Shown here: positions 4,449 through 28,167 of the stretch, one piece after another
Layout: each line of letters begins with the position of its first letter
Numbering within the stretch: position 1 is the stretch's first letter
Assembly (NCBI GenBank): GCA_016193565.1
Contig: JACPRY010000012.1
Coordinates: forward strand, 1 to 32,656
DNA: 32,656 nucleotides
Direction: 5' to 3'
Source: Armatimonadota bacterium
Lineage (GTDB): Bacteria > Sysuimicrobiota > Sysuimicrobiia > Sysuimicrobiales > Kaftiobacteriaceae
Notes under the pieces: model-generated
What the model saw: only the letters and a program-made list of their open reading frames with translations
Told to the model about the DNA's origin: nothing
The model's database searches: none
Made by a program: the position numbers and the translations under genes

Positions 4449-5477
4449 ATGCTCGATCTGATTGCCCGATTCCCGCAAATGTGCGTGGAGGCGTGGGACC
4501 TGGGCTGGGCCACCCGGGTGCCTACCACGCGGCCGAACGCCATCGTTGCGATGGGGATGGGGGGTTCGGGGATCGGCGGCGACCTGCTGAAATCCGTGCT
4601 GTTCGACGACGACGCGCCACCGGTGGCGTCGGTCAAAGAATACCGGGCGCCGTCGTTTGCGGGTCGCGGCGCGCTCGCCTTCGCCTGCAGCTATTCCGGC
4701 AACACCGAGGAAACGCTGGCCGCGTACCAGGAGGCCCGCCGCAGGGGTGCGGCCTGTGTCGCGGTCACGTCGGGCGGGGAGTTGCTCCGTCTGGCGAACG
4801 ACCGCGGGGACCCGGCCGTGGTCGTGCCGTCCGGCCTGCCGCCGCGCGCGGCGCTCCCGTACCTGTTCATCCCAATGCTGGCCGTGCTCGGACGCGCCGG
4901 TATTATCGGATCGTACGCGGAAGGGTTGCGTGAAGCGGTCCAGGTGCTGGGCGACATCGTTGCGTCCGAATCCCCCGACCGGACGCCGGGAACCACCCGC
5001 GCCGTCGCGGCGCGCCTAGTGGGCCGCATCCCCGTGATCTACAGCGCGGCGCCGTTCCTGGAGCCGGCGGCGGAGCGCTGGAAGGATCAGTTCAACGAGA
5101 ACAGCAAAACGTTTGCGGTGTGGAACACCTTTCCCGAATTGAACCATAACGAGACGGTGGGGTGGGGACTGGACGACGCCCTCGCCCGCATCATTCACGT
5201 CATCATCCTGCGTGATGCCGCCGAGGACGCGCGACTGAGCGCGCGCGTGACCATCACGAAGGACCTGGCATTCCGTCGCGCAGGCGGCCTGGACGAGGTG
5301 CGCGCGCAGGGACGGGGGAAACTGGCCAGGCTGCTGTCCACGGTCCTCATCGGGGATTTTGTGAGCTGGTACCTCGCGACGCTGCGCGGAGTGGATCCAA
5401 CGCCTGTGGAGGTCATCGAGGAACTAAAGAGAAGACTGGCCGGGAGCGCGGGAGCGCGGAAGCCCGGGAGCGCGTAG
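4449..5477 (+). CDS. bifunctional phosphoglucose/phosphomannose isomerase (SIS domain, archaeal-type PGI/PMI)
   Basis: MLDLIARFPQMCVEAWDLGW... matches the PGI/PMI family N-terminal region, with two SIS-like halves. The in-frame upstream sequence encodes ...EHDPSG directly before the ATG after a TAG at 4383 (see findings). Confidence 0.8.
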   Translation: MLDLIARFPQMCVEAWDLGWATRVPTTRPNAIVAMGMGGSGIGGDLLKSVLFDDDAPPVASVKEYRAPSFAGRGALAFACSYSGNTEETLAAYQEARRRGAACVAVTSGGELLRLANDRGDPAVVVPSGLPPRAALPYLFIPMLAVLGRAGIIGSYAEGLREAVQVLGDIVASESPDRTPGTTRAVAARLVGRIPVIYSAAPFLEPAAERWKDQFNENSKTFAVWNTFPELNHNETVGWGLDDALARIIHVIILRDAAEDARLSARVTITKDLAFRRAGGLDEVRAQGRGKLARLLSTVLIGDFVSWYLATLRGVDPTPVEVIEELKRRLAGSAGARKPGSA

Positions 5478-6591: not shown

Positions 6592-6596
6592 CTAAC

Positions 6597-6668
6597 GACA
6601 ACGCGAAGACGCGACAACGCGACAACGCGAACCGAGTTGTCCGGTTGTCCCGTTGTCGCGTTGTCCAG
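6597..6668. repeat. palindromic tandem-octamer element: (GACAACGC)x4-5 followed by its inverse (GTTGTCNC)x4
   Basis: Read directly in the sequence. It fills the entire gap between the convergent stop codons at 6589-6591 and 6669-6671. Could fold into a roughly 30-bp imperfect hairpin and act as a bidirectional terminator. Confidence 0.7.
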
Positions 6669-7538
6669 TTACCGTGTTTCTTTCGTCAGGTCGGCCAGGG
6701 GTTGTAGCAGCTTCGTAAATTCCAGCGGGAAGATAAACTTCGTGCTGGCGCCCGCGCCCAGGACTTTGAGCGCCTCGAGGTACTGCAGCGTGAGCGTTTT
6801 GCCGTCGATGTTCTTGGCGACCGCGAAGATCTTGTCGAGGGCGAGCGAGAAGCCCTCGGCGCGCAAGATCGCGGCCTGACGGGCGCCCTCAGCCTCCAGG
6901 ATCGCGGCCTGCTTCGCGCCTTCCGCCACGGTCACCGCCGCCTCGCGCTTTCCGAGCGCCTCTGTCACGACGGCGCGCCGGCTGCGCTCGGCGGACATCT
7001 GCCGGGTCATCGCTTCCTGCACCTCGCGCGGGGGCAGGATCTCGCGGATCTCGACGGTGGTGACCTTGACGCCCCACCGTTCGGTGACCTCGTCCATTTT
7101 CGCCCGCAGGACCTGGTTGATCTGCTCTCGCTTGGCCAGCACGTCGTCCAGGCTAATATCGCCGACCACCGCGCGCAGCGTCGTCGTGGCAATCCCTCTT
7201 GCGGAGCCCGCAAAATCCACCACCTGGATGACAGAAAACTCGGGATTGAAGACTTTGAAATAGATCAGGAAATCGATATTGATCGGCGCATTGTCCTTCG
7301 TGATGCACGTTTGGGAAGGGATCTCCAGGAAGAACTCACGCAGGTCCACCCAGACCGCTTTGTCGATGACCGGCCACAGGAACACGAGTCCGGGCCCCTT
7401 CTTGCCGATCGACTTCCCCAAACGGAACACGACGAGTCGCTGATACTCGCGCACGATCTTGACCGCCGACGAGAGGATGAAGATGCCGACGATGACGGCG
7501 GCGATGAGAAAGGTCAGCTGGGTCAGAAACGAAGGCAT
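6669..7538 (-). CDS. SPFH/band-7 (stomatin/prohibitin-like) membrane protein
   Basis: N-terminal TM helix followed by an SPFH core (KIVREYQRLVVFRLGK..., ...VEIREILPP...), then an Ala/Glu-rich coiled-coil tail. SD GGAGGTG upstream. Confidence 0.85.
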   Translation of the reverse strand: MPSFLTQLTFLIAAVIVGIFILSSAVKIVREYQRLVVFRLGKSIGKKGPGLVFLWPVIDKAVWVDLREFFLEIPSQTCITKDNAPINIDFLIYFKVFNPEFSVIQVVDFAGSARGIATTTLRAVVGDISLDDVLAKREQINQVLRAKMDEVTERWGVKVTTVEIREILPPREVQEAMTRQMSAERSRRAVVTEALGKREAAVTVAEGAKQAAILEAEGARQAAILRAEGFSLALDKIFAVAKNIDGKTLTLQYLEALKVLGAGASTKFIFPLEFTKLLQPLADLTKETR

Positions 7539-8987: not shown

Positions 8988-8995
8988 GGGACGGA

Positions 8996-9049
8996 TCTAT
9001 TGAATCTGTTGAATCTATTGAATCAACGGGTCCAATAGATTCAACAGAT
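8996..9049. repeat. AT-rich palindrome of 9-mer repeats: (TCTNTTGAA)x3 + inverted (TCAAYAGAT)x2
   Basis: Occupies the accB-accC intergenic gap, directly abutting the accC start codon. Much lower GC than the surroundings. Confidence 0.7.
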
Positions 9050-11509: not shown

Positions 11510-11515
11510 ATTATA
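11510..11515 (-). promoter_or_regulatory. perfect TATAAT -10 hexamer (minus strand), about 40 nt upstream of the accD start
   Basis: Reverse complement of ATTATA at 11510-11515. Flanks the heptamer array on its left side. Confidence 0.45.
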
Positions 11516-11531
11516 ACGTAGAAATGGCCTG

Positions 11532-11559
11532 CCGTTACCGTTCCCCGTTCCCGGTTCCC
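11532..11559. repeat. tandem heptamer array (CGTTCCC-like x4; GGGAACN on the other strand)
   Basis: ccgttac/cgttccc/cgttccc/ggttccc. Sits centrally between the divergent accD and htrA genes, each side flanked by a perfect TATAAT. Confidence 0.75.
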
Positions 11560-11572
11560 AGGTCGCGTAGTC

Positions 11573-11578
11573 TATAAT
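11573..11578 (+). promoter_or_regulatory. perfect TATAAT -10 hexamer for htrA
   Basis: 13 nt after the last heptamer. AAGGAGG SD and ATG follow 27 nt downstream. Confidence 0.5.
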
Positions 11579-11604: not shown

Positions 11605-12732
11605 ATGAATGCACGCGCCACTCCCGGCGCTATCCTGCTCGTGCTCATTGCCGTCGCCGTCATTGGAGGCGCGCTCGGCAGTTCGGTCCTGCCGCGCGTG
11701 CCGTTCCTCTCCGCGCTGTCCCAGTCCGCACCGTCGGCGGCGTCACCGGCACCTCCGTCCGCGGCCGCACCGAGCGCACCCACGCAGACCACGCCGCGCG
11801 TCGTCGAGCGTGAGGAATCGGTCGTCATCCGCGCCGCGGATCGGGTCCGGCCGGCTGTGGTCAACATCGATACGGTCGCGCAGGTGCAGACGGTCTTCGG
11901 CATCTTCCCACAGGAAGGCGCGGGCTCCGGTGTGATCGTCAGCCCCGACGGCTACATTCTGACGAATAATCATGTGGTCGAGACCGCCCAGCAAATCAAG
12001 GTCACCCTGCTGTCGGGGAAGACCCTCCCGGCGCGGGTCATCGGGACCGACCGGTTCTCCGATCTCGCAGTGGTGAAAGTAGAGATGTCCGGGCTGCCGG
12101 CCGCCACGCTCGGCCGTTCCAGCGCGCTGCGGGTGGGGCAGATGGCGATCGCGATCGGGAACCCGTTCGGTCTCGGGCACACGGTGACGGTGGGGGTCAT
12201 CAGCGCGCTGAACCGCAATATCCGCGTGCCAAACCTCATCATCGAGAACCTGGTTCAGACCGACGCCGCGATCAACCCCGGAAACAGCGGCGGCGCGCTG
12301 GTGGACAGCAGAGGCGAGGTCATCGGCATCAACACCGCGATCGTGCGGGACGCGCAGGGCATCGGTTTCGCCATCCCCATCGACACGGCGCGCGCGATCA
12401 TGGACCAGCTGATCCGGCAGCAGCGGGTCGTGCGTCCCTACGTCGGCGTGGTGTGGGGCGGCGATGTCGATGCGAACATCGCGCGACAATACAACCTGCC
12501 CGTCGACCACGGCGTCATCGTCCGCGACGTCGATCAGAACGGGCCGGCCGCCGCGGCAGGGATCCGGCCCGAAGACATCATCATCTCGCTCGACCGCGCG
12601 CCGGTCGCCAACTGGAACGACTTCATCCGCGCGCTCTTCAACAAGCGCCCCGGCGATGCGGTTCGCATCGAGGTCGTGCGCAACGGAATCCGCAGAACGT
12701 TCACGGTGAGACTCACTGAGCGCACCCAATAA
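11605..12732 (+). CDS. htrA: HtrA/DegP-family serine protease with PDZ domain (S1C)
   Basis: Signal/TM N-terminus, Pro/Ala-rich linker, catalytic triad context (TNNHVV, D, GNSGGAL), C-terminal PDZ. Confidence 0.9.
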   Translation: MNARATPGAILLVLIAVAVIGGALGSSVLPRVPFLSALSQSAPSAASPAPPSAAAPSAPTQTTPRVVEREESVVIRAADRVRPAVVNIDTVAQVQTVFGIFPQEGAGSGVIVSPDGYILTNNHVVETAQQIKVTLLSGKTLPARVIGTDRFSDLAVVKVEMSGLPAATLGRSSALRVGQMAIAIGNPFGLGHTVTVGVISALNRNIRVPNLIIENLVQTDAAINPGNSGGALVDSRGEVIGINTAIVRDAQGIGFAIPIDTARAIMDQLIRQQRVVRPYVGVVWGGDVDANIARQYNLPVDHGVIVRDVDQNGPAAAAGIRPEDIIISLDRAPVANWNDFIRALFNKRPGDAVRIEVVRNGIRRTFTVRLTERTQ

Positions 12733-12735
12733 CGC

Positions 12736-12766
12736 GTTGAAGGTTGAATGTTGAAGGTTGAAGGTT
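12736..12766. repeat. tandem heptamer array (GTTGAAG/GTTGAAT x4)
   Basis: Starts 3 nt after the htrA stop and overlaps the argS start codon (ATG 12748). Confidence 0.7.
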
Positions 12767-14523
12767 ACACATTCGATCGAGCAAAGCGCGAGGCTGTGGA
12801 GGCGGTCCAGGCCGCGCTCGGCGAGCCCGCTGAACTGACCACCGCACTGCCTCCCGCCGAAGTCGACGCCGATCTCGCCATTCCGTGCTTCCCGCTCGCC
12901 GCACAGCGTCGCAAGTCGCCGCCTGAGATCGCCGGCGAGCTGGCCCGATCCGTGCGGCCCGGTCCGCTGCTGGCCGGTGCGCAGGCCGCCGGCGGCTATC
13001 TCAACTTCACGCTGGCACGCCCCGCCTTTGCCGCAGGCGTGATGGCCGATCTCATCCGCGGCGGCGACCGCTACGGCACCAGCGAGGTCGGGGCCGGGCG
13101 CACGGTCGTCATCGATTACTCGGCGCCCAATGTGGCGCGACAGATGTCCGTGGGGCACCTGCGCTCGACGATCATCGGCGCCGCGCTGGTCAACCTGCAC
13201 CGTCACACCGGGTACCGGCCGGTTGGGGACAACCACCTCGGGGACTGGGGAACGCAGTTCGGCACGCTGCTGTACGCGTACGCGCACTGGCTGGACCGGG
13301 AGGCGTACGAGCGGGATCCCATCGCAGAACTGCTGCGGTTATACGTCATGTTTGACGAGGAGGCGCGAAAGGATCCGGCGCTCCGGGAACGAGCGCGCGA
13401 ATGGTCGTTGAAACTGGAGCGCGGCGACCCGGAGGCCCGGACGCTGTGGCAGGAGTTCGTCCGCCACAGCCTGGTGGAGTTCCAGAAGACCTACGACCTG
13501 CTCGAGGTACGGTTCGACCACACGTTGGGCGAAAGCTTCTACGAGGACAAGATGGAGGAAGTGATCTCACAGGCCCGGCAGAACGGGGTGGCCACCACCG
13601 ACGGCGGGGCAGTGATCATCCGTTTGGACGACGCCGGCATCACGACACCACTCATCTTGCAACGCAGCGATGGGGCGACGCTCTATGCGACGCGAGATCT
13701 GGCCACCGCCGTCTACCGCATCCGAACCTTCCGACCGGCAAAGATTCTGTACGTCGTCGGATCAGACCAGCGTCTGCACTTCCGTCAGCTGTTCGAGGCC
13801 TTGAAGAAGCTCGGCCACGGTGACGTGGAGTACGTGCACGTGGACTTCGGGCTGGTCCGGCTGCCCGAGGGGCGCATGAGCACACGGCGCGGACGCGTCG
13901 TGTTTCTCCAGGAGGTGCTCGAGGAAGCGATCGATCGGGCGCGCGCGCTCGTCGACGAGAAGAACCCCGAACTGCCGGAGGCGGAGCGCCGCGAGGTCGC
14001 CCGCATCGTAGGCGTCGGCGCGATCAAGTACGCCGATCTCTCGCAGAACCGGGTGAAGAACATCGTCTTCGATTGGGACCGCATGCTGGCGCTGGACGGC
14101 GACAGCGCCCCGTACCTGCAGTACACGTACGTGCGGGCGCGGGGCATCATCCGGAAGGGCGGGGACGTTGCGCTCGACGTCCCGTTCGACGGCCGGGCCG
14201 CGGCGTCAGCGCAGGAGTGGGCCCTGATCAAACACCTCGCGCGGTTCCCTGACGCCGTCCATGAGGCGACCCGTGCGTACTACCCGCATGTCGTGGCCAA
14301 CCATCTCTTCCAGCTCGCCCAGCTCTTCCACGCCTTCTACCAGGAGATCCCGGTGCTGCAGGCCGAGGACAACGGTCTTCGCTGGAGCCGCCAGCAGCTG
14401 GTCTGGGGCGTAGCCACCGTCATGCGCACCGGCCTCGGCCTCCTGGGCATTCGCGTCCCGGAGCGCATGTATTCCCGGTTCCCGGTTCCCGGAATCGGTC
14501 ATGGAGCAAAATGCCGGGTATAA
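12748..14523 (+). CDS. argS: arginine--tRNA ligase
   Basis: Class I aaRS with ArgRS add-1 N-domain, HIGH-region variant SAPNVARQMSVGHLRS, DALR anticodon-binding domain. Canonical C-terminus ...ERM is followed by a 17-aa tail translated from the heptamer array. Confidence 0.9.
   Translation: MLKVEGYTFDRAKREAVEAVQAALGEPAELTTALPPAEVDADLAIPCFPLAAQRRKSPPEIAGELARSVRPGPLLAGAQAAGGYLNFTLARPAFAAGVMADLIRGGDRYGTSEVGAGRTVVIDYSAPNVARQMSVGHLRSTIIGAALVNLHRHTGYRPVGDNHLGDWGTQFGTLLYAYAHWLDREAYERDPIAELLRLYVMFDEEARKDPALRERAREWSLKLERGDPEARTLWQEFVRHSLVEFQKTYDLLEVRFDHTLGESFYEDKMEEVISQARQNGVATTDGGAVIIRLDDAGITTPLILQRSDGATLYATRDLATAVYRIRTFRPAKILYVVGSDQRLHFRQLFEALKKLGHGDVEYVHVDFGLVRLPEGRMSTRRGRVVFLQEVLEEAIDRARALVDEKNPELPEAERREVARIVGVGAIKYADLSQNRVKNIVFDWDRMLALDGDSAPYLQYTYVRARGIIRKGGDVALDVPFDGRAAASAQEWALIKHLARFPDAVHEATRAYYPHVVANHLFQLAQLFHAFYQEIPVLQAEDNGLRWSRQQLVWGVATVMRTGLGLLGIRVPERMYSRFPVPGIGHGAKCRV
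14472..14492. repeat. tandem heptamer array (TTCCCGG x3; CCGGGAA on the other strand)
   Basis: Inside the last 17 codons of argS. Confidence 0.75.
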
Positions 14524-14524
14524 T
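14519..14524 (+). promoter_or_regulatory. perfect TATAAT -10 hexamer (contains the argS stop TAA), 26 nt after the array
   Basis: Would give an approximately 195-nt leader for the SLH-protein gene at 14727. Confidence 0.4.
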
Positions 14525-14726
14525 ACGTAGGTGGAGGGTGTACCGCCTGGGGTCCCGGCAGGAATTGCTGCCTGAGGAGCGAAACCCTCCGACGATTCAG
14601 TTCAAAGCCTCGGAGTTTCGGCGCCCGACGGAGCAGCCTGAGTCACACACCAAACCAGGCACCGGTTTTCGGCAAGGTGCCCGCAACCACCGCCGGTAAT
14701 CCCAAACATCTGATGAACAGAGGTTT

Positions 14727-16001
14727 ATGATGAATCTCTTTGCACGAACAGGTTGGGGTGCCCGCGCGCTCATGCTCGCGGTCGCTTTGATGCTGGCCGC
14801 AGCGCCCGCGTGGGCCGAGATCTTCATCGACATTCAGGGCACCCCCGCGCAGCGGGCGATCGAACGACTGACCGCGAAAGGTCTCTTCCCGCTCCCTGGC
14901 GTGCGTGGAGCGCCGGACAAGTTCAACCCTACTGGGACAGTGACCCGGGCGGACTTCGCGTTCCTTCTCGTGCAGGCCATCGGGGTCGACACGGCAGGGA
15001 TCGTGCTGCCGAAGTTCAAGGACGCGGCTGACATCCCGCAGGTGCAGCAGGGTGCGGTTGCGGCGATCACGAGCCTCGGGAGCGTTTCACCCCAGAAAGT
15101 GGAACTGAAGCGCGGTGGCCTGACCTATACGCTGGCCACGAACAAGGCCGTGTATGGACCGTCGGACTTCGTCGTCATTACACTTACCATTCTCAATACC
15201 ACCGCGAAGGATCTGAAGTTCGAGCACGTCAACTCGCAGCTATACGATTTCATCGTCCGGAGCGCGGAGGGCCAGGAGATCGCGAAGTGGTCGCTTGGCC
15301 GAGCGTTCCTCCCCATGGAGGCGCCGCTCACGCTGACCGCGGGGAAGAAGTTTGAGTGGAACACGCAATGGAAGCAGCTCGATCAGAGCGATGACCCCGT
15401 CGACCCTGGCCGTTACGAGATTATCGGCGTCCATACTACGAAGGCCAACCCGACGTCGCTCTCCCTGTTCTTCAACAAGGGCGTGATGCCGGCGCTGTCA
15501 GACAACACCTTTCGCCCGAAGCAGGAGATGACGCGACTAGACCTGGCCACGGTGACGGCCCGGTCGATCGGTCTGGCCGATGCGGCGCCCTCATCGCTGA
15601 ACGTGACCGACGCTGACAGCATCCCCGCGACTGCTCGCGGCACAGTGGCTGCGGCGCTGGAAAAAGGCATTGTCGCGCCTGTGGGGAACCGGGAGTTCCG
15701 ACCTAATCAGAAGGCCACGCGGAGCGAACTGGCGCAGGCACTGGACGTGTTGATGACTACCCTGAACCGATACAGCTTCAACAGAGGTATGCTTAAGGAT
15801 CCCATCACCGGGAACCCTCCGCAGATCTCTATCGAAGACGAACGCAAGGCGCTGCGCGTATTCCGAGTGGCGCGGTCTCATGCAGTCTACCGGAACGATC
15901 GTCTCGCCGAGTTGCGCGACCTGCGGCCCGGCGACTCGCTCCGTTTCCTGACCAGGGGAGACGTGGGCGATGTTGCCTACATCGAGGCCACAGGGCGCTG
16001 A
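14727..16001 (+). CDS. secreted SLH-domain protein with central BsuPI-like/Ig-like domain
   Basis: Signal peptide; SLH motifs (FxDIxGxxAQRAIERLTAKGL; FRPKQEMTRLDLAT; FRPNQKATRSELAQAL); middle region resembles the BsuPI protease-inhibitor fold (called from memory). Confidence 0.7.
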   Translation: MMNLFARTGWGARALMLAVALMLAAAPAWAEIFIDIQGTPAQRAIERLTAKGLFPLPGVRGAPDKFNPTGTVTRADFAFLLVQAIGVDTAGIVLPKFKDAADIPQVQQGAVAAITSLGSVSPQKVELKRGGLTYTLATNKAVYGPSDFVVITLTILNTTAKDLKFEHVNSQLYDFIVRSAEGQEIAKWSLGRAFLPMEAPLTLTAGKKFEWNTQWKQLDQSDDPVDPGRYEIIGVHTTKANPTSLSLFFNKGVMPALSDNTFRPKQEMTRLDLATVTARSIGLADAAPSSLNVTDADSIPATARGTVAAALEKGIVAPVGNREFRPNQKATRSELAQALDVLMTTLNRYSFNRGMLKDPITGNPPQISIEDERKALRVFRVARSHAVYRNDRLAELRDLRPGDSLRFLTRGDVGDVAYIEATGR

Positions 16002-16006
16002 TACCT

Positions 16007-16678
16007 ATGAAGTTTTTCCTTGATACAGGAAACCTGGAGGAAATTCGGACGGGCGCGGGCTGGGGCATCGTCGACGGCGTCACGACGAATCCGTCTCTCG
16101 CCGGCAAAGAGGGGATGGATTATCGCGATCTCATCCGCGAGATCGCGAAGATGGTCTCGGGTCCGATCTCTGTTGAAACGACGACGAACGATCCCAAGGA
16201 GATGCTTGCGCAGGCGCGCGAGTACGTCACCTGGTCCCAGAACGTCGTCGTCAAGGTGCCGGCCACGGCCGAAGGCATCACGGCGGCGATGGCGCTGCGC
16301 GATCTAGGGATCCGCACCAACGTGACCCTGACGTTCTCCGTAAACCAGGCACTGGTGGCCGCGAAGGCCGGCGCCTACTTCGTCAGCCCGTTCGTGGGAC
16401 GGTTGGACGACATCGGCCACGACGGCATGGAGGTCGTCCGCCAGGCGGTGCAGATCTTCCGGACGTACGGCTTCAAGACGCAGGTCCTGGCCAGCAGCCT
16501 CCGGCATCCGCTGCACGTCACGCAGGCGGCGCTGGCCGGCGCGGATATCGCCACCGTTCCCTTCAAGGTCATGGAGCAGCTGTTCAAGCATCCACTGACT
16601 GAGAGCGGGCAGGCGAAGTTCCTGGCCGACTGGCAGAAGTTGCAGGCAGAGCTGGAGAAGAAGAAGGCCAAGGTCTAG
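16007..16678 (+). CDS. fructose-6-phosphate aldolase / small transaldolase (TalC/Fsa family)
   Basis: MKFFLDTGNLEEI...TTNPSL...VKVPAT...Schiff-base Lys region. About 220 aa, typical of the family. Confidence 0.85.
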   Translation: MKFFLDTGNLEEIRTGAGWGIVDGVTTNPSLAGKEGMDYRDLIREIAKMVSGPISVETTTNDPKEMLAQAREYVTWSQNVVVKVPATAEGITAAMALRDLGIRTNVTLTFSVNQALVAAKAGAYFVSPFVGRLDDIGHDGMEVVRQAVQIFRTYGFKTQVLASSLRHPLHVTQAALAGADIATVPFKVMEQLFKHPLTESGQAKFLADWQKLQAELEKKKAKV

Positions 16679-16802
16679 CCCACCCACGACCGAGGCACGC
16701 TCACAAAGAGAGCAGACTTCGAATTGACTCTGCCTGCACAGTCGCATTTCACAATTCGCAATCCGTAAATCTGGCAAGTGACCAGTAGGAGGTGGATCGG
16801 CG

Positions 16803-18065
16803 TTGACCGCCATCGCTGAACTCGAGCAAAAAACTATGGACGAGCTCCAGGATCTCGCCAAGGAGCTCAACATTCCGAACCTGCGTCGCTACCGGAAGCA
16901 GGAGCTGATCATGCGCATTCTGCAGATGCAGACAGAGCAGTCGGGGCTGATGTTCCGGGCCGGCATCCTGGAGATCATGGCCGAAGGGTACGGCTTCCTC
17001 CGCCACGAGGGCTACCTGCCGGGGTCCGAAGACATCTACGTCTCTCCTTCGCAGATCAAACGGTTCGGCCTGCGCGTGGGCGACGAGGTGTTGGGTCAGG
17101 TGCGGCCGCCCAAGGACAACGAGAAGTACTACGCCCTCCTGCGCGTCGAGGCGGTCAACGGACTCGATCCGGAGCAGGCGCGCAACCGGCCGGACTTCGA
17201 GCGGCTCACCCCCGTCTTCCCGCACGAGCGCGTCAAGCTGGAGAGCGACGCCGACCTCACGACACGCATGGTGGACCTGTTCGCGCCGATCGGCAAAGGC
17301 CAGCGCGCGATGATCGTCTCACCGCCGAAAGCCGGCAAGACGACAATCCTGAAGAAGATCGGCCAGGCCGTCGTTTCCAATTATCCTGAGATCTACCTCA
17401 TGGTCCTGCTGCTCGATGAGCGGCCGGAAGAGGTCACCGACATGCGCCGGTCGGTCGAGGCCGAAGTCGTCGCGTCGACATTTGACCGGCCGCCGGAGGA
17501 GCACATTCAGGTGGCCGATCTGGTCCTCGAGCGGTCGAAGCGCCTGGTCGAAGGTGGCCGTGATGTGTTCATTCTGCTGGATAGCCTCACCCGATTTTCC
17601 CGTGCCAACAACCTGGTAATTCCGCCTTCGGGCCGGACGCTGTCGGGCGGGCTCGATCCTGCGGCCCTGCACCGTCCGAAGCGCTTCTTCGGCGCGGCCC
17701 GGAAGATCGAGGAGGGCGGGAGCCTGACGATCACTGCCACGGCGCTGGTCGACACCGGCAGCCGGATGGACGATCACATCTACGAAGAGTTCAAGGGCAC
17801 TGGCAACATGGAGATGCACCTCAGCCGCAAGCTCCAGGAGCGCCGCACCTTCCCGGCGATCGACATCAAGATGAGCAGCACCCGGCGGGAGGAGCTCCTG
17901 CTGACCGAGGATGAGTTGCGCAAGGTCTGGGTGCTCCGCAAGAGCCTCGAGCAGCTGGACAGCGTGGCGATGACCGAGCTCATCCTGGACCGGCTGCGCA
18001 AGACTTCCAACAACCAGCAGTTCCTGAAATCCATCGTAAAGAGCGCCGAAGAGGACCTCCAGTAA
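16803..18065 (+). CDS. rho: transcription termination factor Rho
   Basis: N-terminal RNA-binding OB domain ([11 protein letters not shown]), Walker A PPKAGKTT, RecA-like ATPase core. TTG start with AGGAGG SD 11 nt upstream. Confidence 0.92.
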
Positions 18066-18100
18066 GCCTGTAAACCTCGTCAATCGGACTCCTCCCATAG

Positions 18101-18130
18101 GTATGCCCTGCCACCTCGGCGGGCATAGGG
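18101..18130 (+). terminator. stem-loop TATGCCCTGCC-ACCTC-GGCGGGCATA after rho
   Basis: About 10-bp stem with one bulge, 36 nt after the rho stop. No U-tract. Confidence 0.35.
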
Positions 18131-18414
18131 TAATTGGAATCTCGGGCGTCCATAACCCGTAATTTATGTGCAATTTTGACCGAATTTCGCTCCAGGACCA
18201 TCTCGGATTCGTGAGAAAGAGCGAGAAAACAGGAGAACGGACGAGCAAAGAGCGGTTATTTAGGTCCCCATAATTTCCGGTCTCCTTGGCGTCTAAGAAT
18301 CACCGAAATCGGGCAGGAGACCCGTACGTCGGGGCGAAGTGTGGAATGCCTGGGGCGCACCCCGGAAGTTTGACTCCTGTTCAGGGCAGGGGAATCCGGC
18401 GAGGCAGGTGGAGG

Positions 18415-19473
18415 ATGGGGTCAAAGGCGAGGCTGTTCGGCATCGGCATGCTTTCTGGGATGCTGATGCTTCCGGCACACATCCCTCAGCCGTTGAGTCC
18501 TGGACCCTCCGCAACCCCCTTCCTCCAGGCCGTTCAGACCCAAGCTGCAGTTTCCCAGATCTTCACGACGCTCTTCCACCTCGCTCCGCCTCGGCCTGAG
18601 ACGGCCAGCGCGACGAGTCAGCCTGCGCCATCGCCCACCACCGTCGTCGTCAAGGAAGGGCAGTCGGTCTGGGACATCGCGAACGCCTACGGCGTGTCGG
18701 TGGACTCAATCATCGCCGCGAACGACCTCCGGAATGCGGACCTGATCAAGCCCGGACTGCGCCTCCTAATTCCGAGGGCCGGCGCCGCTCTTCCCGCCCA
18801 GAAGCCGGCCGTCCAGAAGCCCGCGGTCCAGAAGGCCCCGTCGAAGGCCGCATCCCCGTCGAAGACCCAGCCGGCACGGCAACCCCGCCCCGAGTGGATC
18901 GTCGTGCGGCAGGGGCAGACGCTCTCAGAGATTGCCGAAGAACACGGGACATCGGTCAGCGCGTTCGTGAGGGCGAACGGGCTGCGGAGTGCCGAGCTCA
19001 TTCGCGAGGGGCAGCGTCTGGCGATCCCAGGACGGCAAGCCGCCTCGAGACGTCTAACGATCGCCTCGCCGGTTCCGGTGTCCCGGACCCAGGCCGTGGT
19101 CGCGCGGGTGAGCGGGTTCCTGTGGCCGGCACGCGGTGTGCTGACCTCAAGGTTCGGCTGGCGGTGGCGGCAGCATCACGACGGGATTGACATCGCCGCT
19201 CCCCGAGGCGCCCCGATCCACGCCGCGAAGGCCGGGCGCGTCATCTTTGCCGGCTGGTATTACGGCTATGGGCGGGCCATCATCATCGACCACGGCGGCG
19301 GGCTCACGACCCTCTATGGACATGCATCGAAGCTGCTGGCCAGCAACGGTCAGGCGGTGCAGGCGGGCGAACTCATCGCCCGCGTCGGATGCACCGGCCA
19401 CTGCTCCGGCTCGCACCTCCACTTCGAGATCCGCGTTAACGGTAAGGCAGTCAATCCCCTGAAATACCTCTAG
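18415..19473 (+). CDS. LysM (x2) - M23 family metallopeptidase (murein DD-endopeptidase-like)
   Basis: Signal peptide, two LysM domains (VVKEGQSVWDIA...; VVRQGQTLSEIA...), PAVQK x3 linker, M23 motifs HxxxD...HLHFE. Start uncertain (ATG 18415 abuts the SD; ATG 18445 is an alternative). Confidence 0.8.
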   Translation: MGSKARLFGIGMLSGMLMLPAHIPQPLSPGPSATPFLQAVQTQAAVSQIFTTLFHLAPPRPETASATSQPAPSPTTVVVKEGQSVWDIANAYGVSVDSIIAANDLRNADLIKPGLRLLIPRAGAALPAQKPAVQKPAVQKAPSKAASPSKTQPARQPRPEWIVVRQGQTLSEIAEEHGTSVSAFVRANGLRSAELIREGQRLAIPGRQAASRRLTIASPVPVSRTQAVVARVSGFLWPARGVLTSRFGWRWRQHHDGIDIAAPRGAPIHAAKAGRVIFAGWYYGYGRAIIIDHGGGLTTLYGHASKLLASNGQAVQAGELIARVGCTGHCSGSHLHFEIRVNGKAVNPLKYL

Positions 19474-19478
19474 CTGAC

Positions 19479-19506
19479 GGGAACGGGGAACGGCGAACGG
19501 GGAACG
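19479..19506. repeat. tandem heptamer array (GGGAACG x4, one GCGAACG)
   Basis: Begins 6 nt after the M23 stop. Confidence 0.75.
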
Positions 19507-19538
19507 GTACAAGCCTACCCTGGCCGGAGTGACTGTGC

Positions 19539-19544
19539 TATAAT
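19539..19544 (+). promoter_or_regulatory. perfect TATAAT with extended -10 (TGc) for rpmE
   Basis: tgtgcTATAAT. GGAGGGAG SD and ATG follow 30 nt downstream. Confidence 0.55.
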
Positions 19545-19573
19545 TCCCGCGGTCATTTCCCGGAGGGAGTTCC

Positions 19574-19777
19574 ATGAAGAAGGGCATTCATCCCGAGTAC
19601 AAGCAGACGACCGTGACATGTGCCTGCGGCGAAACGTTTGTGACGGGCTCCACGAAACAGAATATCCGCGTCGAGATCTGCTCGAAATGCCATCCGTTTT
19701 ACACGGGGCAGAGAAAGTACATCGATGCCGAAGGGCGCGTGCAGCGGTTTGCCAAGAAGTATGGCCTCAAGGTCTAA
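19574..19777 (+). CDS. rpmE: 50S ribosomal protein L31 (type A, Zn-ribbon)
   Basis: MKKGIHPEY...CACG...[10 protein letters not shown], 67 aa. Confidence 0.95.
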
Positions 19778-19800
19778 CCGGTCCGAGCGAACGTCGACGG

Positions 19801-19830
19801 GAAGGGGGAGGCGGGTCCGCCTCCCTCTTC
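19801..19830 (+). terminator. GC-rich inverted repeat GAAGGGGGAGGCGG / CCGCCTCCCTCTTC after rpmE
   Basis: 13-14 bp near-perfect stem. No U-tract, but intrinsic terminators without U-tracts are common at high GC. Confidence 0.45.
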
Positions 19831-19865
19831 GCTTAGAGAAGTGACTCGTCCGGTGGGGGATTTCG

Positions 19866-20483
19866 ATGAACGACCTTCAAGGTCGGATTGAGGTCATCGT
19901 CGGCAGTATGTTCAGCGGGAAAAGCGAAGAGCTCATTCGGCGCGTGCGCCGCGCCCAGATTGCTCGCCTGCGGGTTCAGGTATTCAAGCCGGCGATCGAC
20001 AGCCGGTCCGGCCGCCAGCAGATCGCCTCCCATAACGGCGCGCGCATTGAAGCCATTCCCATCGCCCACAGCCGGGAGCTCTCGGAACACCTTGACCCCG
20101 ACGCCACCGTGGTGGCGATCGATGAGGTGCAGTTTCTCGACGACGGCATCGTCGGGATCGCGCAGCACCTTGCCGATCGCGGGATTCGCGTGATCGCCGC
20201 TGGCCTCGACATGGATTTCCGCGGCGAGCCGTTTGGCCCGGTGCCGCAGCTGCTGGCGCAGGCAGAGGCGGTCGACAAACTCCAGGCGATCTGCATGGTT
20301 TGCGGCGTGCCGGCCAGCCGGACGCAGCGGATCATCAACGGCCAGCCCGCCCACTATACCGATCCCGTAATCTTCGTTGGCGCTCAAGAAGTGTATGAAG
20401 CACGATGTCGGGAGCATCACGTGGTTCCGGGAAAGCCATCGACCGGGAACTGGGAACGGGGAACGGGGAACCGTCAGAGATGA
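19866..20483 (+). CDS. tdk: thymidine kinase
   Basis: P-loop [11 protein letters not shown], Zn-ribbon CMVCG...CREHH. The last 20 codons are translated from the heptamer array. The stop overlaps the next ATG (ATGA). Confidence 0.9.
20445..20472. repeat. tandem heptamer array (GGGAACN x4) inside the tdk 3' end, with an inverted partner TTCCCGG at 20488-20494
   Basis: gggaact/gggaacg/gggaacg/gggaacc. Four G3+ tracts with 3-4 nt loops. Confidence 0.75.
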
Positions 20484-21385
20484 AATATTCCCGGCCAACA
20501 GAGCGCTTACTTATCGGGGGCCAAGCCGTCATCGAAGGGGTCATGATGCGCTCGCCCCGGTGGACGTCGACCGCCGTCCGGCGTCCGACCGGCGAGGTCG
20601 TGACCGCCACCGACCGCGTCGATTCGCTGCTGCTGCGCCATCGGTGGCTGCGGGCGCCGATTGTGCGCGGGGCGATCACGCTGTACGAAGCGCTGGTGAT
20701 CGGCGTGCGCGCGCTGCTGTTCTCGGCGCGCGAAGCGTTGGGGGAAGAGCAGGAACAGTCGCCGGCCGCCATCAGCGTCAGTGTCGCGCTCGGGCTCGCG
20801 CTGGCGATCGGCCTGTTCTTCGTCCTGCCCGCCGCCATGATCAGGCTGCTCGACCAGTATTTCGCCACGGTCTATACGTTGAACATCGCCGAGGGCGCGG
20901 TGCGGGTGTCGATTCTGATCGGCTACATCGCGTTGATCGGACGGCTCAATCACATTCGACGGGTGTTTGCGTATCACGGGGCCGAGCACAAGGCCGTCAA
21001 TGCCTATGAAGGAGGCGCGACGCTCGAGGTCGGGCACGTGCGCCGGTTCAGCCGGTTTCACCCGCGCTGCGGTACGAGCTTCCTGCTCATCGTGATGATC
21101 GTGGCGATCATCGTCTTCTCATTCCTGGGTCGGCCGGGATTGCTGCTACGCATCACAGAACGGGTGCTGCTTATTCCGTTTGTGGCCGGCATCAGTTATG
21201 AGATCATTCGCGCTGGGGCACGCTACCGCTGGTTCCGTCCCCTGGTCGTGCCGGGGATCTGGCTCCAGCGGTTGACCACCCGCGAACCGGATGACATGCA
21301 GCTGGGCGTGGCGATTCACGCCCTCCAAGAGGTCCTTGACCGCGAACGCAATCTGCGACAGGCTGGTGAGGAGGCGGCGGTATAA
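20480..21385 (+). CDS. DUF1385-family membrane protein (YqhQ-like; prfA-associated)
   Basis: [26 protein letters not shown]... [12 protein letters not shown] motif plus TM helices. Start taken at the internal ATG of track ORF 20405. Confidence 0.7.
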
Positions 21386-21396
21386 TAAGCTCTGTC

Positions 21397-22479
21397 ATGA
21401 TCGACCGCGGTGTGATACTCGACAAGCTGGATGCACTCGAGACCCGCTACGAAGCGCTGATGCAAGCGCTGGCCGACCCGGCCATCTTCGCCCAGCCCGA
21501 CCGGTACCAGCAAGTGGCCAAAGAGCGCGCGGATCTCGAGGAGGCGGTTTCCACGTACCGCGAGTACCAGAGGGTCGTGCGCGAGCTCGAGGAGGCGGAG
21601 GCGCTGGCGCAGACCGAGCAGGACCCGGAGCTGCGCGAACTGGCGAAAACCGAGCAGGCGACGCTACGGCAGCGCCGGGATGATCTGGAACTGAGACTGA
21701 AGGATCTCCTGGTGCCGAAGGATCCCTATGCGAACCGCAACATTATCATGGAGATCCGCGCGGGTGCCGGCGGGGACGAAGCCGGGCTATTTGCCGGCGA
21801 CCTGTTCAGGATGTATTCGCGGTTTGCCGAGCGGAACCGGTGGAAGGTAGAGGTCCTCGAGAGCAGCGCCACCGCGCTCGGGGGGTTCAAGGAAATCATC
21901 TTCGGCATTCAAGGGAAGGGTGCATACAGCAGATTGAAGTACGAAAGCGGCGTGCACCGTGTCCAGCGAGTGCCGGAGACTGAGGCGTCGGGCCGCATTC
22001 ATACCTCAACGGCGACGCTCGCCGTCCTGCCGGAAGCCGAAGAGGTCGATCTCAAGATCCGCCCTGACGAGATCGAGATTGAAACCTACCGCGCAGGGGG
22101 TGCCGGAGGGCAGAACGTCAACAAGGTCGAAACGGCGGTGCGCATCCGTCATCTGCCGAGTGGACTCGTCGTGTCCTGTCAGGACGAGCGCTCCCAGCAC
22201 CAGAATCGCGAGAAGGCGATGCGGATCCTGCGGGCCAAACTGCTCGAGCGGGAACTCCAGCGGCAGCAGCAGGAGATCGCGCAGCAGCGGCGCCAGCAGG
22301 TCGGGAGCGGCGACCGCAGCGAGAAGATCCGGACGTACAACTTCCCGCAAAACCGCCTCACCGATCACCGCATCGGGCTATCACTCCACCGGCTGGACGC
22401 CATTCTCGACGGCGACCTCGACGAACTCACCACCGCCCTGGCCGCAGCCGAGGCGAGGGCGCTGGCGGCGGCCATCTGA
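21397..22479 (+). CDS. prfA: peptide chain release factor 1
   Basis: PxT/PET-type recognition region, GGQ motif ([18 protein letters not shown]), 360 aa. Confidence 0.95.
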
Positions 22480-22481
22480 GA

Positions 22482-23426
22482 CCCAATCCCATCACGATAC
22501 GCGAAGCCTATCTGTACGGTTGTGAGCACCTCATCGCTTCGGGCGTACCGGAGCCGGCCATCGAGGCCGAGGTCCTGCTGAGGCACGTCCTGGGCTATGA
22601 TCGGGCGGCGCTGTATACTCGCTGGGACTCTCCGATTGATCCTCCCACGGCCGGGCGCTACCAGCGCCTTTTGGAGATCCGGAGCACGGGGCGGCCCGTT
22701 CCCTACATCATCGGTACGCGGGAGTTTATGAGCCTCCCGTTCGCAGTGGACGAACGGGTGATGATCCCGAGACCCGAAACAGAGATTCTGGTGGAATATC
22801 TGGTGAAGAAGTTCTCAACTACGGAAACGAGGAAACGAGGAAACGAGGGAACGAGTCAAGGCGACGAACGACCAACGACCAACGACGAACATCAGTTGGT
22901 GCTGGTTGATGTCGGGACGGGCAGCGGCTGCATCGCGGTGAGCCTCGCACACTACCTGCCGCAAGCCCGCGTCTATGCGACCGACATCTCGGCCGCGGCG
23001 CTCGAGATCGCCGCGCGAAACGCTCAGCATCACAACGTGGCAGATCGGGTGGTCCTGCTTGAGGGCGATCTCCTGTCCCCCCTTCCGCACCACCTGGACG
23101 GACAGGTGCAGGCCGTAGCCAGTAACCCGCCCTATGTCCCGGTATCACAGGCGCTGGACCTGGCGAGGGAAATTCGCGATTTCGAGCCTGCGGAAGCCGT
23201 GTTTTCGCCGGGCGAAGGAACGGTGATGCACGGCAGGCTGATCGAAGAAGCGCCTCGCTGGCTCTGCGCCGGAGGGATGCTCGCGATGGAGATCGCTGCG
23301 GGCCAGGCTGAGCCTGTGCGCAATCGAGTGGCTCAGGACAACCGGTATGATCGTGTTTGCTCCCTCTCTGATCTTGCTGGAATTGAGCGCGTGGTGGTCG
23401 CATGGCGACGACACGCGACAGGGTAG
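22482..23426 (+). CDS. prmC: release-factor glutamine N5-methyltransferase (PrmC/HemK); start codon uncertain
   Basis: The frame is open from immediately after the prfA stop and encodes the PrmC N-domain (...IREAYLYGCEHL...VLLRHVLGYDRAALY...), then VLVDVGTGSGCIAV and NPPY. There is no ATG/GTG/TTG before the track's internal TTG at 22671. Contains a 20-codon in-frame repeat insertion. Confidence 0.75.
   Translation, partial: PNPITIREAYLYGCEHLIASGVPEPAIEAEVLLRHVLGYDRAALYTRWDSPIDPPTAGRYQRLLEIRSTGRPVPYIIGTREFMSLPFAVDERVMIPRPETEILVEYLVKKFSTTETRKRGNEGTSQGDERPTTNDEHQLVLVDVGTGSGCIAVSLAHYLPQARVYATDISAAALEIAARNAQHHNVADRVVLLEGDLLSPLPHHLDGQVQAVASNPPYVPVSQALDLAREIRDFEPAEAVFSPGEGTVMHGRLIEEAPRWLCAGGMLAMEIAAGQAEPVRNRVAQDNRYDRVCSLSDLAGIERVVVAWRRHATG
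22823..22890. repeat. compound array inside prmC: (GGAAACGA)x4 + GTCAAGGC + (GACNAAC)x4
   Basis: Encodes TETRKRGNEGTSQGDERPTTNDEH between the PrmC N-domain and the methyltransferase GTG motif. Length keeps the reading frame. Confidence 0.75.
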
Positions 23427-26532: not shown

Positions 26533-26540
26533 CATTCGCG

Positions 26541-26572
26541 CGTTCCCCCGTTCCCGCGTTCCTTCGTTCCCG
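26541..26572. repeat. tandem octamer array (CGTTCCCN x4)
   Basis: cgttcccc/cgttcccg/cgttcctt/cgttcccg. Begins 9 nt after the remnant's stop. Confidence 0.75.
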
Positions 26573-26581
26573 CTGTTGTGT

Positions 26582-26587
26582 TATAAT
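26582..26587 (+). promoter_or_regulatory. perfect TATAAT -10 hexamer for rplY
   Basis: 9 nt after the array, 51 nt before the rplY ATG. Confidence 0.5.
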
Positions 26588-26600
26588 CGGCGTCGGTCTT

Positions 26601-26624
26601 GGCCCTGGCGCGTGGGCCTTTTTT
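26601..26624 (+). promoter_or_regulatory. terminator-like hairpin GGCCC-tggcgcgt-GGGCC + TTTTTT in the rplY leader (candidate attenuator)
   Basis: GC stem plus T6, located between the TATAAT and the rplY start codon (14 nt before the ATG). Confidence 0.4.
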
Positions 26625-26638
26625 CGTGGGGGGTTGAG

Positions 26639-27367
26639 ATGGAACGAGTGAGTCTGGAAGCGAAGCGCCGCGATGGCACGGGAACGAGCAAGGTGCGCAA
26701 GCTCCGCCTGCAGGGGCTCGTCCCGGCGGTCGTGTACGGCCGTGGCCGCGAGCCGGTGCCCGTGGCCGTCGACGGGAAGTCGCTGCGCGCATCGCTGCAC
26801 ACGCATGCCGGCCTGAACGTCCTCATCGACCTGTCCATCGCCGACGGCAGTCGCTCGACGGAAACCGTGATGGTCAGGGAAGTGCAGCGCGGGATGTTCA
26901 GGCGCGAGATCATTCACGTGGATTTCCACACGATCGACCTGACGGAGACACTCGAAGCGCACGTGCGGTTGGTCTTCACCGGCCAGGCGAAGGGCGTCGT
27001 CGACGACGGGGGCGTGTTGGAGATCCACCTCCGCGAAGTCGTTGTCGAGTGTCTGCCGGCACAGATTCCCGAGTCGATTGAGATCGACATCTCAGCGCTG
27101 GGCGTGGGGGACTCGCTGCACGCCAGCGATATCAAGATGCCCGCTGAGGTGACGATGGTCACGTCGGCCGAGGAGGCGATCGCCACAGTCGTCATGCCCA
27201 AGGAGATCGAAGAGGTGGCGCCTGCGGCTGCGGCGGTGCCTGAAGCGGCGGCAGAAGCCGCGGCCCCCGAGGCAGCGGCGCCGGCAGAGGGCAAGCCGGC
27301 CGAGAAGGCTGGTGAGCCTGAGAAGCCCGAGAAACCTGAGAGACCCGAGAAGAAGGAGAAGGGGTAG
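26639..27367 (+). CDS. rplY: 50S ribosomal protein L25 / general stress protein Ctc
   Basis: MERVSLEAKRRDGTGTSKVRKLR...VVYG... L25/Ctc fold. Ala/Pro/Glu/Lys-rich C-terminal tail (PEKPEKPERPEKKEKG). Confidence 0.9.
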   Translation: MERVSLEAKRRDGTGTSKVRKLRLQGLVPAVVYGRGREPVPVAVDGKSLRASLHTHAGLNVLIDLSIADGSRSTETVMVREVQRGMFRREIIHVDFHTIDLTETLEAHVRLVFTGQAKGVVDDGGVLEIHLREVVVECLPAQIPESIEIDISALGVGDSLHASDIKMPAEVTMVTSAEEAIATVVMPKEIEEVAPAAAAVPEAAAEAAAPEAAAPAEGKPAEKAGEPEKPEKPERPEKKEKG

Positions 27368-27518: not shown

Positions 27519-28109
27519 ATGAAACTCATCGTCGGGATGGGCAACCCAGGGCGCCGGTACCGGGGAACGCGCCACAACGTGGGCTGGGAGGTGCTCGAGT
27601 GTCTGGCCCGCCGCCACGACGTGACGATCGATGACGACACGGGCTGGGCTGAGGTCGGACGGGGAACGATCGGTCCCCACCGCGTCGTGCTGGCGCGGCC
27701 GGTGACCTACGTGAACGCGAGCGGCATGGCGGTCCAGGATCTCAAGCGCCGCCACCGCGTACAGGTTGAGGACATCTTCCTGATCGTGGACGATCTCGAT
27801 CTGCCCCTCGGCCGGATGCGGCTGCGGCCGAAGGGAAGCGCCGGCGGGCACAACGGACTGAGATCCGTGATCGAGGCGTTGGGCAGCGCCGAATTTCCGC
27901 GGCTGCGCATCGGGATCGGACGGCCACCGGCGGGGGTCGATGCCGCGGACCACGTCCTCACACGGTTCACCGACGAGGAGCGGCAGGGGCTGGAGGCCGC
28001 CCTGGTCCGCGCGGCGGAAGCCCTCGAGGTCGCGATTACTGAGGGCCTCGATGTCGCGATGAACCGGTTTAACGCGAAAACGAACCTCGGAAACGAGGAA
28101 ACAAGGTAA
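27519..28109 (+). CDS. pth: peptidyl-tRNA hydrolase
   Basis: MKLIVGMGNPG..YRGTRHNVG... The last about 8 codons and the stop lie inside the repeat palindrome. Confidence 0.9.
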   Translation: MKLIVGMGNPGRRYRGTRHNVGWEVLECLARRHDVTIDDDTGWAEVGRGTIGPHRVVLARPVTYVNASGMAVQDLKRRHRVQVEDIFLIVDDLDLPLGRMRLRPKGSAGGHNGLRSVIEALGSAEFPRLRIGIGRPPAGVDAADHVLTRFTDEERQGLEAALVRAAEALEVAITEGLDVAMNRFNAKTNLGNEETR

Positions 28110-28167
28110 CGAGGAAACGAGGCATGGCAGTTACCGGTTTCCTAGTTTCCTCGTTTCCTGGTTTCCG
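28089..28167. repeat. palindromic octamer array: (GGAAACGA-like)x4, 15-nt spacer, (NGTTTCCT)x4
   Basis: ggaaacga/ggaaacaa/ggtaacga/ggaaacga ... ggtttcct/agtttcct/cgtttcct/ggtttccg. Spans the pth stop. Confidence 0.75.

Follow-up and report, generated by a model that had tools for sequence, protein, structure and literature searches.

In enterobacteria, repetitive extragenic palindromic sequences and bacterial interspersed mosaic elements (REP/BIME) form stable hairpins just after stop codons; they occur many times per genome, have no U-tract and are thought to end or protect transcripts. Hairpins and palindromes also stimulate deletions, through replication slippage or SbcCD-type cleavage. 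Genes for S-layer/SLH proteins have long 5′ untranslated leaders. Short tandemly repeated repetitive (STRR) sequences are tandem heptanucleotide arrays of few copies, dispersed between genes; a genome carries several families of unit, and their function is unknown. The STRR heptamers of heterocystous cyanobacteria were reportedly described by Mazel et al. in 1990 in J Bacteriol. Here, we analysed a 32,656-nt stretch of Armatimonadota DNA (contig JACPRY010000012.1 of assembly GCA_016193565.1; hereafter the window), in which argS, the gene for arginyl-tRNA synthetase (ArgRS), continues past its expected stop codon through a tandem heptamer array. We conclude that the window argS is probably a derived, strain-level stop-loss allele, left by a 46-bp deletion of one arm of a repeat-built hairpin. 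As a stop-loss allele it is ordinary, and the repeat-built hairpins are the more interesting lead.

The argS terminus and its same-species counterparts

The argS open reading frame (ORF; 12748..14523, + strand) encodes a 591-aa ArgRS. Pfam matches to Arg_tRNA_synt_N (3e-08), tRNA-synt_1d (1e-92) and DALR_1 (2e-28) give the complete domain set of a class I ArgRS with a DALR anticodon-binding domain, and the DALR_1 match terminates at residue 574, which is profile position 117/117. The codons at the end of this core read CCG GAG CGC ATG, with M574 at 14467-14469, and are followed by TAT at 14470-14472, with no stop. Three perfect TTCCCGG units, found by both Tandem Repeats Finder (TRF) and an exact scan, occupy 14472-14492; 26 bases then lead to a -10 box, and the frame closes at the TAA of 14521-14523, within a perfect TATAAT (14519-14524). 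The window protein (P0122, MBI2972388.1) does not end on the terminal Met of ...E(R/K/Q)M but runs 17 aa beyond M574. The initial annotation had stated that the stop directly after ERM was gone, that (TTCCCGG)x3 was translated into a 17-aa tail and that the tail ended on the TAA of TATAAT; this description was base-exact, and the box is a real -10-like element. The features of the argS end are as follows.

12748..14469, + strand: argS core coding sequence of 574 codons, last residues ...GIRVPERM, with the Pfam domains and 96% identity to P0001
14470..14472, + strand: former argS stop, now TAT; the junction lies between 14471 and 14472, TA being the remnant of TAA and T the first base of the array
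14470..14520, + strand: 17 read-through codons with the predicted tail YSRFPVPGIGHGAKCRV, found in no relative
14472..14492, + strand: (TTCCCGG)x3, the surviving 3′ arm of an inverted heptamer-array hairpin, which alone forms no significant structure

The C-terminus was compared among the best 120 homologues (119 full-length and 1 truncated, 96% to ~48% identity), mostly proteins from Armatimonadota metagenome-assembled genomes (MAGs). In keeping with the earlier statement that ArgRS normally ends E(R/K)M, all of the full-length homologues (119/119) carried a C-terminal Met, and 92 of the 120 listed proteins ended in ERM. The final residue of the PDB ArgRS chains 2zue, 4oby, 1iq0, 1bs2 and 4q2t, which cover Pyrococcus horikoshii, E. 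coli, Thermus thermophilus, yeast and human, also aligns to M574. Within the 17-member 90% cluster, the length of 591 aa is confined to the window protein; 14 others have 574 aa, one has 575 aa and one is a 463-aa fragment, and the same-species proteins P0121 and P0124 have 574 aa. A shared extension, which had been named as the observation that would speak against an altered argS end, was found in no relative when protein ends and the DNA of relatives were compared. Exact-protein look-ups returned no identical record for the 591-aa ArgRS, the SLH protein or AccB. No statement on the role of the ArgRS terminal Met was found in a literature search, and the case for an unusual ArgRS end is therefore made from conservation alone. 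The predicted 17-aa tail is non-conserved and unique to one assembly.

Same-species DNA carries a longer form of the locus. The transaldolase is identical in the window and in contig JACPDU010000053.1 of GCA_016183895.1 (L164), and a look-up of the identical Pth also gave same-species contigs. By blastn, L164 matched window 12053-20678 at 99.65% identity with 30 mismatches and a single indel of 46 nt; L164 1-2419 corresponds to window 12053-14471 and L164 2466-8672 to window 14472-20678, with no further gap. Around the indel, L164 reads ...GAGCGCATG TAA CGGGAACGGGGAACCGGGAACGGGGAACGG TCACTGCAGTTAC GG TTCCCGG TTCCCGG TTCCCGG AATCGGTCATGGAGCAAAATGCCGGG TATAAT.... Absent from the window is L164 2420-2465, which starts with the final A of TAA and continues through the (GGGAACN)x4 array and the 13-nt loop to GG; the window's ATG-TA abuts the first T of the TTCCCGG array (TAA to TAT). 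A second MAG, L173 (GCA_016180475.1), also carries this long allele (ATG TAA, (GGGAACN)x4, 13-nt loop, GG(TTCCCGG)x3, then the same TATAAT), as do Logan contigs of the runs SRR12113419 (L165, L175), SRR12113422 (L176) and SRR12113425 (L174). It is the majority form among at least six independent same-species sequences, and the short allele occurs in one assembly. The two alleles can be told apart by the following strings.

Junction strings: long allele, ATGTAACGGGAAC; short allele, ATGTATTCCCGG
Allele-specific strings: short allele, CATGTA joined to TTCCCGGTTCCC; long allele, CATGTAACGGGAACG

Because the same-species long allele has both arms, the heptamers of the window are the surviving 3′ arm rather than an insert. 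In every outgroup (L001-L012, L085-L095, L116 and L142) a stop codon, TAG, TGA or TAA, stands directly after ATG. These outgroups range from L001, with 97.4% nucleotide identity within argS (96% aa), through L002 and L142 (83% ArgRS aa identity) and L003, L004 and L085 (79-80%), to L005-L012, L086-L095 and L116 (67-75%). Given that all more distant relatives with DNA have the stop directly after ATG, the argS stop appears to be ancestral and the short allele derived by deletion.

The long allele is predicted to form a strong hairpin. Its RNA fold reached -47.4 kcal/mol over 81 nt (z -4.7; z -5.5 in a 111-nt context) and its DNA fold z -5.3, with the stem beginning at L164 2421; the window remnant, at z -0.84, folded no better than shuffles. 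The deleted stretch agrees within 1-2 nt with the predicted 5′ arm plus loop, and the arm units are imperfect copies (GGGAACG/GGGAACC versus TTCCCGG). A stable GC-rich hairpin just after the stop, as in an intrinsic terminator, was found in the long allele only. Directly 3′ of the argS stem there is no U-tract, the stem being followed by AATCGGTCATGG, and any terminator role of this hairpin is therefore putative. A consensus promoter/terminator scan gave no terminator near argS and no excess of canonical terminators in the window, where a rho gene lies at 16803-18065.

Origin of the short allele

Taken together, these results suggest the following course. In the ancestral state, TAA would have been followed at once by (GGGAACN)x4, the 13-nt loop, GG(TTCCCGG)x3, 26 bases and GGTATAAT. 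Loss of 46 bp would fuse ATG-TA to the 3′ arm and turn TAA into TAT, and argS translation would run through the orphaned arm and the spacer to the TAA in TATAAT, adding 17 residues. With the hairpin destroyed by the deletion, argS transcripts would probably read through into the leader of the downstream SLH gene, whose promoter and leader would be unchanged at the DNA level. We infer with moderate confidence that the deletion is an in vivo event, for which hairpin-provoked cleavage or a replication error is the likely cause, and the extended 591-aa ArgRS may be translated and tolerated. A slipped-strand deletion between direct repeats was considered and rejected: a deletion between ACGG...ACGG would not have removed the stop, and the junction shows no microhomology, which makes simple slippage of this kind unlikely.

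Several observations weigh against the deletion allele. It is present in one assembly only and is known from assembled sequence alone; array hairpins demonstrably disturb assemblies, and Logan contigs break inside them; and the junction is without microhomology. The alternative that survives best is an assembly, polishing or library artefact at the strong hairpin, in which case the organism would carry the long allele, its TAA would be intact and an extended ArgRS would not exist. Such an artefact would fit a gap seen in 1 of at least 6 independent same-species sequences, unitig assemblies that break exactly within array hairpins, and a window protein whose end violates a universal ArgRS feature. 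However, the junction k-mers joining CATGTA to TTCCCGG are not producible from long-allele reads by a de Bruijn assembler, and the ~13 nt of identity seen by inspection between arm 1 and the reverse complement of arm 2 are too short for node merging at usual k. A polymerase that jumps a hairpin usually deletes the two arms together, not a single arm with the loop, and the 18.7 kb compared with same-species sequences are colinear beyond the 46-nt gap save for one unrelated leader block. We therefore consider an artefact unlikely, though it is the rival to be taken most seriously, and the record MBI2972388.1 deserves a flag, as either a probable stop-loss variant or an error. If the allele is real, it would entail a C-terminally blocked ArgRS, ribosomes terminating at 14523 and argS read-through into the SLH leader, and it would be a natural test of ArgRS tolerance to a blocked C-terminal Met.

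The initial annotation had instead proposed that a module of heptamer array plus TATAAT promoter was inserted at or over the argS stop, supplying a new promoter and an unusually long leader. The downstream features that bear on this proposal are listed here.

14503..14518, + strand: GGAGCAAAATGCCGGG, ancestral block immediately 5′ of the -10 box, aligning with GGGAGCAAATCCAGGG in L002, GGGAGCACGAATCTGAGG in L003 and GGGAGCACGGATCTGGGG in L142
14519..14524, + strand: TATAAT, -10 box of the SLH/BsuPI gene promoter, conserved as GGTATAAT in relatives
14531..14726, + strand: predicted 5′ leader of the SLH/BsuPI gene, ~196 nt, with a transcription start site (TSS) predicted at ~14531 from the -10 box
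14727..16001, + strand: gene for a secreted 424-aa protein with SLH (Pfam 1.5e-21) and BsuPI (1.5e-16) domains, syntenic in relatives

The window does have a modular look, as six of its seven TATAAT boxes carry a 7-8-mer array 8-32 nt upstream. However, L164, L173, L165 and L174-L176 reveal the window as a 46-nt deletion derivative of ATG-TAA-arm1-loop-arm2, with sequence lost and not gained. The promoter is not new either: GGTATAAT is conserved in L002, L003, L005, L006, L008, L009, L011, L012, L085-L087, L090-L095, L116 and L142, at 16-130 nt past the argS stop and, with the same leader motif, in relatives down to 67% ArgRS identity. In L002, L005, L006, L009, L011, L012 and others, GGTATAAT and the leader occur without any array, and in L002, which reads ATG TGA G GGAGCAAATCCAGGG TATAAT, 16 nt separate the TGA stop from the box. 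The block 5′ of the -10 box is judged homologous because the window's ...CAT GGAGCAAAATGCCGGG TATAAT aligns with GGAGCAAATCCAGGG TATAAT of L002. TATAAT occurs 7 times in the window against ~1 per strand expected, and all seven sites behave as real -10 boxes, since each precedes a same-strand gene start (by 10-203 nt). As in a sigma-70-type promoter, the -10 hexamer downstream of argS is conserved in position among relatives; a consensus scan found no -35 hexamer at 16-18 nt, where the positions read GGTCAT/CGGTCA, and for want of a -35 the promoter scan omitted the 14519 box. That the array serves the SLH promoter as a -35 or UP element was also considered and rejected, the same -10 box occurring without an array in relatives and no -35 hexamer being shared.

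The leader fares similarly. Measured from the predicted TSS, SLH/BsuPI leaders in the clade span 89-316 nt, so the 196-nt leader is ordinary in length for this gene. Near its 5′ end, at 14557-14566, it carries the clade-invariant GGCAGGAATT, that is GGCAGG(G/A)ATT, which is invariant in 11 SLH/BsuPI leaders (invariant columns G33-G38, T41 and T42 of alignment A1), and TTCCCAAC...GATGA...(A/G)GG is conserved before the start codon (14690-14726). No structure or known RNA family accounts for GGCAGG(G/A)ATT or TTCCCAAC...GATGA, and they may therefore be an operator or protein-binding site. The structure search suggested for the leader was negative: Rfam gave no match over the whole window at the gathering score and only noise (E>7) over 14400-14800 at E<=10, RNAalifold on 11 aligned leaders gave 0 consensus pairs, a weak negative in view of the shallow alignment, and single-sequence folding was no better than shuffles (z -0.35 in the window, -1.39 in L002). 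These three results gave no sign of a riboswitch or other structured leader RNA, and the idea was dropped. Taken together, the comparisons indicate that promoter and leader are ancestral, and we regard insertion of a module as very improbable. What stands of the earlier interpretation is the lost stop and the new, unshared tail; its cause is replaced by deletion of an arm, next to an old promoter and leader.

A stop codon within TATAAT is not unique to argS, because the stop TAA of the DUF1385 gene (21383-21385) also lies inside a perfect TATAAT (21381-21386), 10 nt before the prfA ATG (21381-21397). The position of this box suggests a near-leaderless prfA transcript.

A third explanation reverses the polarity of the change. 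The short allele would be ancestral in the species, and the long allele would be a later product of fold-back (template-switch) synthesis, which copied the array in inverted form and restored the stop. Inverted arrays must arise somehow, template switching is a plausible route, and the arms are imperfect copies; but two events would be needed, loss of the stop and its exact regain at the same codon, and the stop is present in all outgroups with the long allele as the majority form, which leaves fold-back synthesis with very little probability.

Tandem arrays and hairpins at gene ends

The deletion of an arm at argS exposes a dense family of hairpins at stop codons, in which sequence differs and architecture is kept between close lineages. 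Arrays were called with TRF (period 7-9, at least 2.9 copies), and the expectation was taken from 100 dinucleotide shuffles. The window (32.7 kb) holds 16 arrays of 3-4.5 copies each against 0.58 +/- 0.74 expected, most of them at the 3′ ends of genes or shortly before TATAAT boxes. Their units, which include GGGAACG, GGAAACGA, GTTGAAG and CGACAACG, differ from locus to locus; GGGAAC/GTTCCC-type units dominate and recur at several loci. A scan of the window for TTCCCGGTTCCCGG with up to 2 mismatches allowed gave 8 matches versus 0.45 expected. The sites are listed below.

5441-5474, 6596-6670, 8995-9024, 11532-11559, 12736-12766, 14472-14492: array sites in the window
19479-19507, 20445-20471, 22823-22890, 26535-26573, 28089-28166: further array sites in the window
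6596-6631/6636-6670: inverted pair between the convergent ABC and Band7 genes, z -5.1
28089-28122/28137-28166: inverted pair 3′ of pth, z -4.4
8995-9024 and partner: inverted pair between accB and accC, z -4.6
11532-11559 (between the divergent accD/htrA -10 boxes), 12736-12766, 14472-14492, 19479-19507, 26535-26573: single arrays
12736..12766, + strand: (GTTGAAG)x4.4 single array (TRF) between the htrA stop TAA 12730-12732 and argS

In a clade census of ten non-redundant loci (159 kb), 28% of the 81 arrays began 0-15 nt past a stop codon, where 1.3% of the sequence is located, and 10% overlapped a stop. An inverted partner lay within 130 nt for 51% of the arrays. At the htrA-argS spacer, L002 (z -5.6), L003 (z -8.1) and L095 (z -5.2) carry hairpins built from unrelated units, and this retention of architecture with unrelated sequence argues for selection on structure. 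The arrays behave as STRR-like repeats, with head-to-tail 7-nt units in few copies at many intergenic loci. Copy number was the same in the window and L164/L168 (99.1-99.7% identity) for all 11 shared arrays. The arrays are therefore not hypermutable at short range, and the copy-number variation among close strains that marks a phase-variable contingency locus was not seen. A functional or regulated ArgRS tail, phase-variable by heptamer copy number or an adaptive appendage, is the least probable explanation of all: a change in the number of 7-nt units would shift the frame and array-encoded tails recur in PGI, thymidine kinase and Pth, but the copy number is constant and the tail is an unconserved addition, in one assembly, to a universally fixed terminus. 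Arrays of DNA-binding sites were also considered and are unlikely, as the units differ between loci. Apart from the STRR sequences, our literature search found no description of such arrays.

The hairpins are placed on stop codons and retain their structure while their sequence turns over, and we infer with moderate confidence that they function at the 3′ ends of transcripts, either as terminators or as mRNA protectors of a REP-like kind. Two observations fit this role poorly: the argS hairpin is without a U-tract though a canonical hairpin followed by T6 exists at ~26604-26630, and some arrays are single, between divergent promoters (11532-11559), or intragenic (the prmC linker), so that one function may not fit all. 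More tentatively, and with the odds rather against it, the arrays might be an undescribed class of bacterial 3′-end element, often forming inverted-pair hairpins near stops, present in Armatimonadota and possibly also in WOR-3 and Chloroflexales; the arms would turn over as whole units while staying complementary, repeatedly rewriting protein termini, with the argS allele as a snapshot of the process. Should the hairpins prove to be genuine 3′-end elements, they would be relevant to transcript termination or protection in high-GC phyla without canonical U-tract terminators, and to the evolution of gene termini.

Heptamer arrays were also seen outside this clade, in loci of unrelated phyla. WOR-3 loci L017 and L024 and Chloroflexales loci L072 and L077 carry arrays of 4-9 copies at 4-9 per 10 kb, among them the inverted pair (ATTGCAG)x4.4/(CAATCTG)x5.3 of L077; most other loci have ~0-1 heptamer array per 10 kb. 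The Logan contigs L169-L172 end at window 28117, and L174-L176 and L165 end or begin in arm 1 of the argS hairpin; such breaks in contigs from several runs mean that array abundance in MAGs is probably under-reported. The (GGGAACG)x4 arrays at 19479-19507, 20445-20471 and L164 2421-2449 have, on their G-rich strand, the G3-N4 x4 pattern of a potential G-quadruplex.

Arrays also enter genes. The argS ATG (12748) belongs to a variant unit, GTTGAAT-G, of the (GTTGAAG) array at 12736..12766, which is identical in the same-species MAG L164. At this spacer, L002 and L003 have a two-arm array hairpin, then TATAAT, 6 nt and ATG; L001 has no array, and TATAAT, 7 nt and ATG; and L095 has its argS ATG within the second arm of the hairpin. 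Three features of L002/L003 are missing in the window species: arm 2 of the hairpin, the TATAAT and the ATG that looks leaderless. Its argS has no -10 box of its own and is therefore probably co-transcribed with htrA. One hairpin arm, the promoter and the original start seem to have been lost earlier at the 5′ end of the window argS, a loss of an arm that has apparently since been fixed. PGI (4449-5477) is ~9 aa longer than in L009-L011, with (CGGGAGCG)x4 before its stop, and the pgi stop of L010 lies inside a (GTGAATTC) array. Thymidine kinase (tdk, 19866-20483) has a 20-aa tail past its Pfam domain that includes (GGGAACN)x4; the stop codon of Pth (27519-28109) falls within its array; and prmC (22671-23426) has two in-frame arrays in a linker (22823-22890), where L005, L008 and L012 have other arrays. 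The ArgRS tail is the newest and most drastic case of this recurrent leakage of arrays into coding sequence.

Two further sites combine arrays or hairpins with promoters. Divergent TATAAT boxes of accD (minus strand, 11510-11515) and htrA (11573-11578) flank a (CCGTTCC) array that covers both -35 regions (11510-11578); the accD ORF, mechanically called from a GTG start (to 11587), probably begins further downstream. The leader of ctc (ribosomal protein L25) carries GGCCC-N8-GGGCC-TTTTTT at ~26604-26630, directly after a -10 box (26582-26640), and this hairpin with T6 may be an attenuator. An 11-nt block at 26624-26634, in place of a 61-nt block in L168 (9056-9116), is the only other structural difference between the window and same-species DNA.

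Comparison with known systems

The window argS resembles stop-loss (nonstop-extension) mutations in that a native stop is lost, 3′ non-coding DNA is translated, and an unconserved tail is set by the next chance stop. It differs from them in its cause, a 46-bp structural deletion that removed one arm of a hairpin along with only the third stop-codon base; in its rescue stop, which lies inside the -10 box of the next gene; and in the terminus affected, which is invariant from bacteria to human. As in palindrome-stimulated deletions, the ends of the argS deletion fall at the limits of a strong inverted repeat, which is thereby abolished, but one arm and the loop only were lost and there is no flanking microhomology. 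The ~196-nt, clade-conserved leader before a secreted SLH-domain protein is like the leaders of other SLH genes, although no conserved structure or RNA family was found in it and its conservation is confined to the GGCAGGRATT and TTCCCAAC motifs.

The hairpins invite comparison with three kinds of element. Like intrinsic (Rho-independent) terminators, they place a GC-rich hairpin directly 3′ of a stop, between co-directional or convergent genes; unlike them, the argS, pth and ABC/Band7 hairpins have no U-tract, and their 20-30-bp stems are far longer than usual. With REP/BIME, the argS-type hairpins share a position after stops, large numbers and the lack of a U-tract, whereas REPs follow one consensus and the hairpins here are made of tandem 7-9-nt units that differ between loci and lineages, which sets them apart from that family. 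With STRR sequences, they share few-copy tandem heptamer arrays, an intergenic location and several unit families; in contrast to STRR, about half of the Armatimonadota arrays form inverted pairs, they are tied to stop codons, and several of them are translated.

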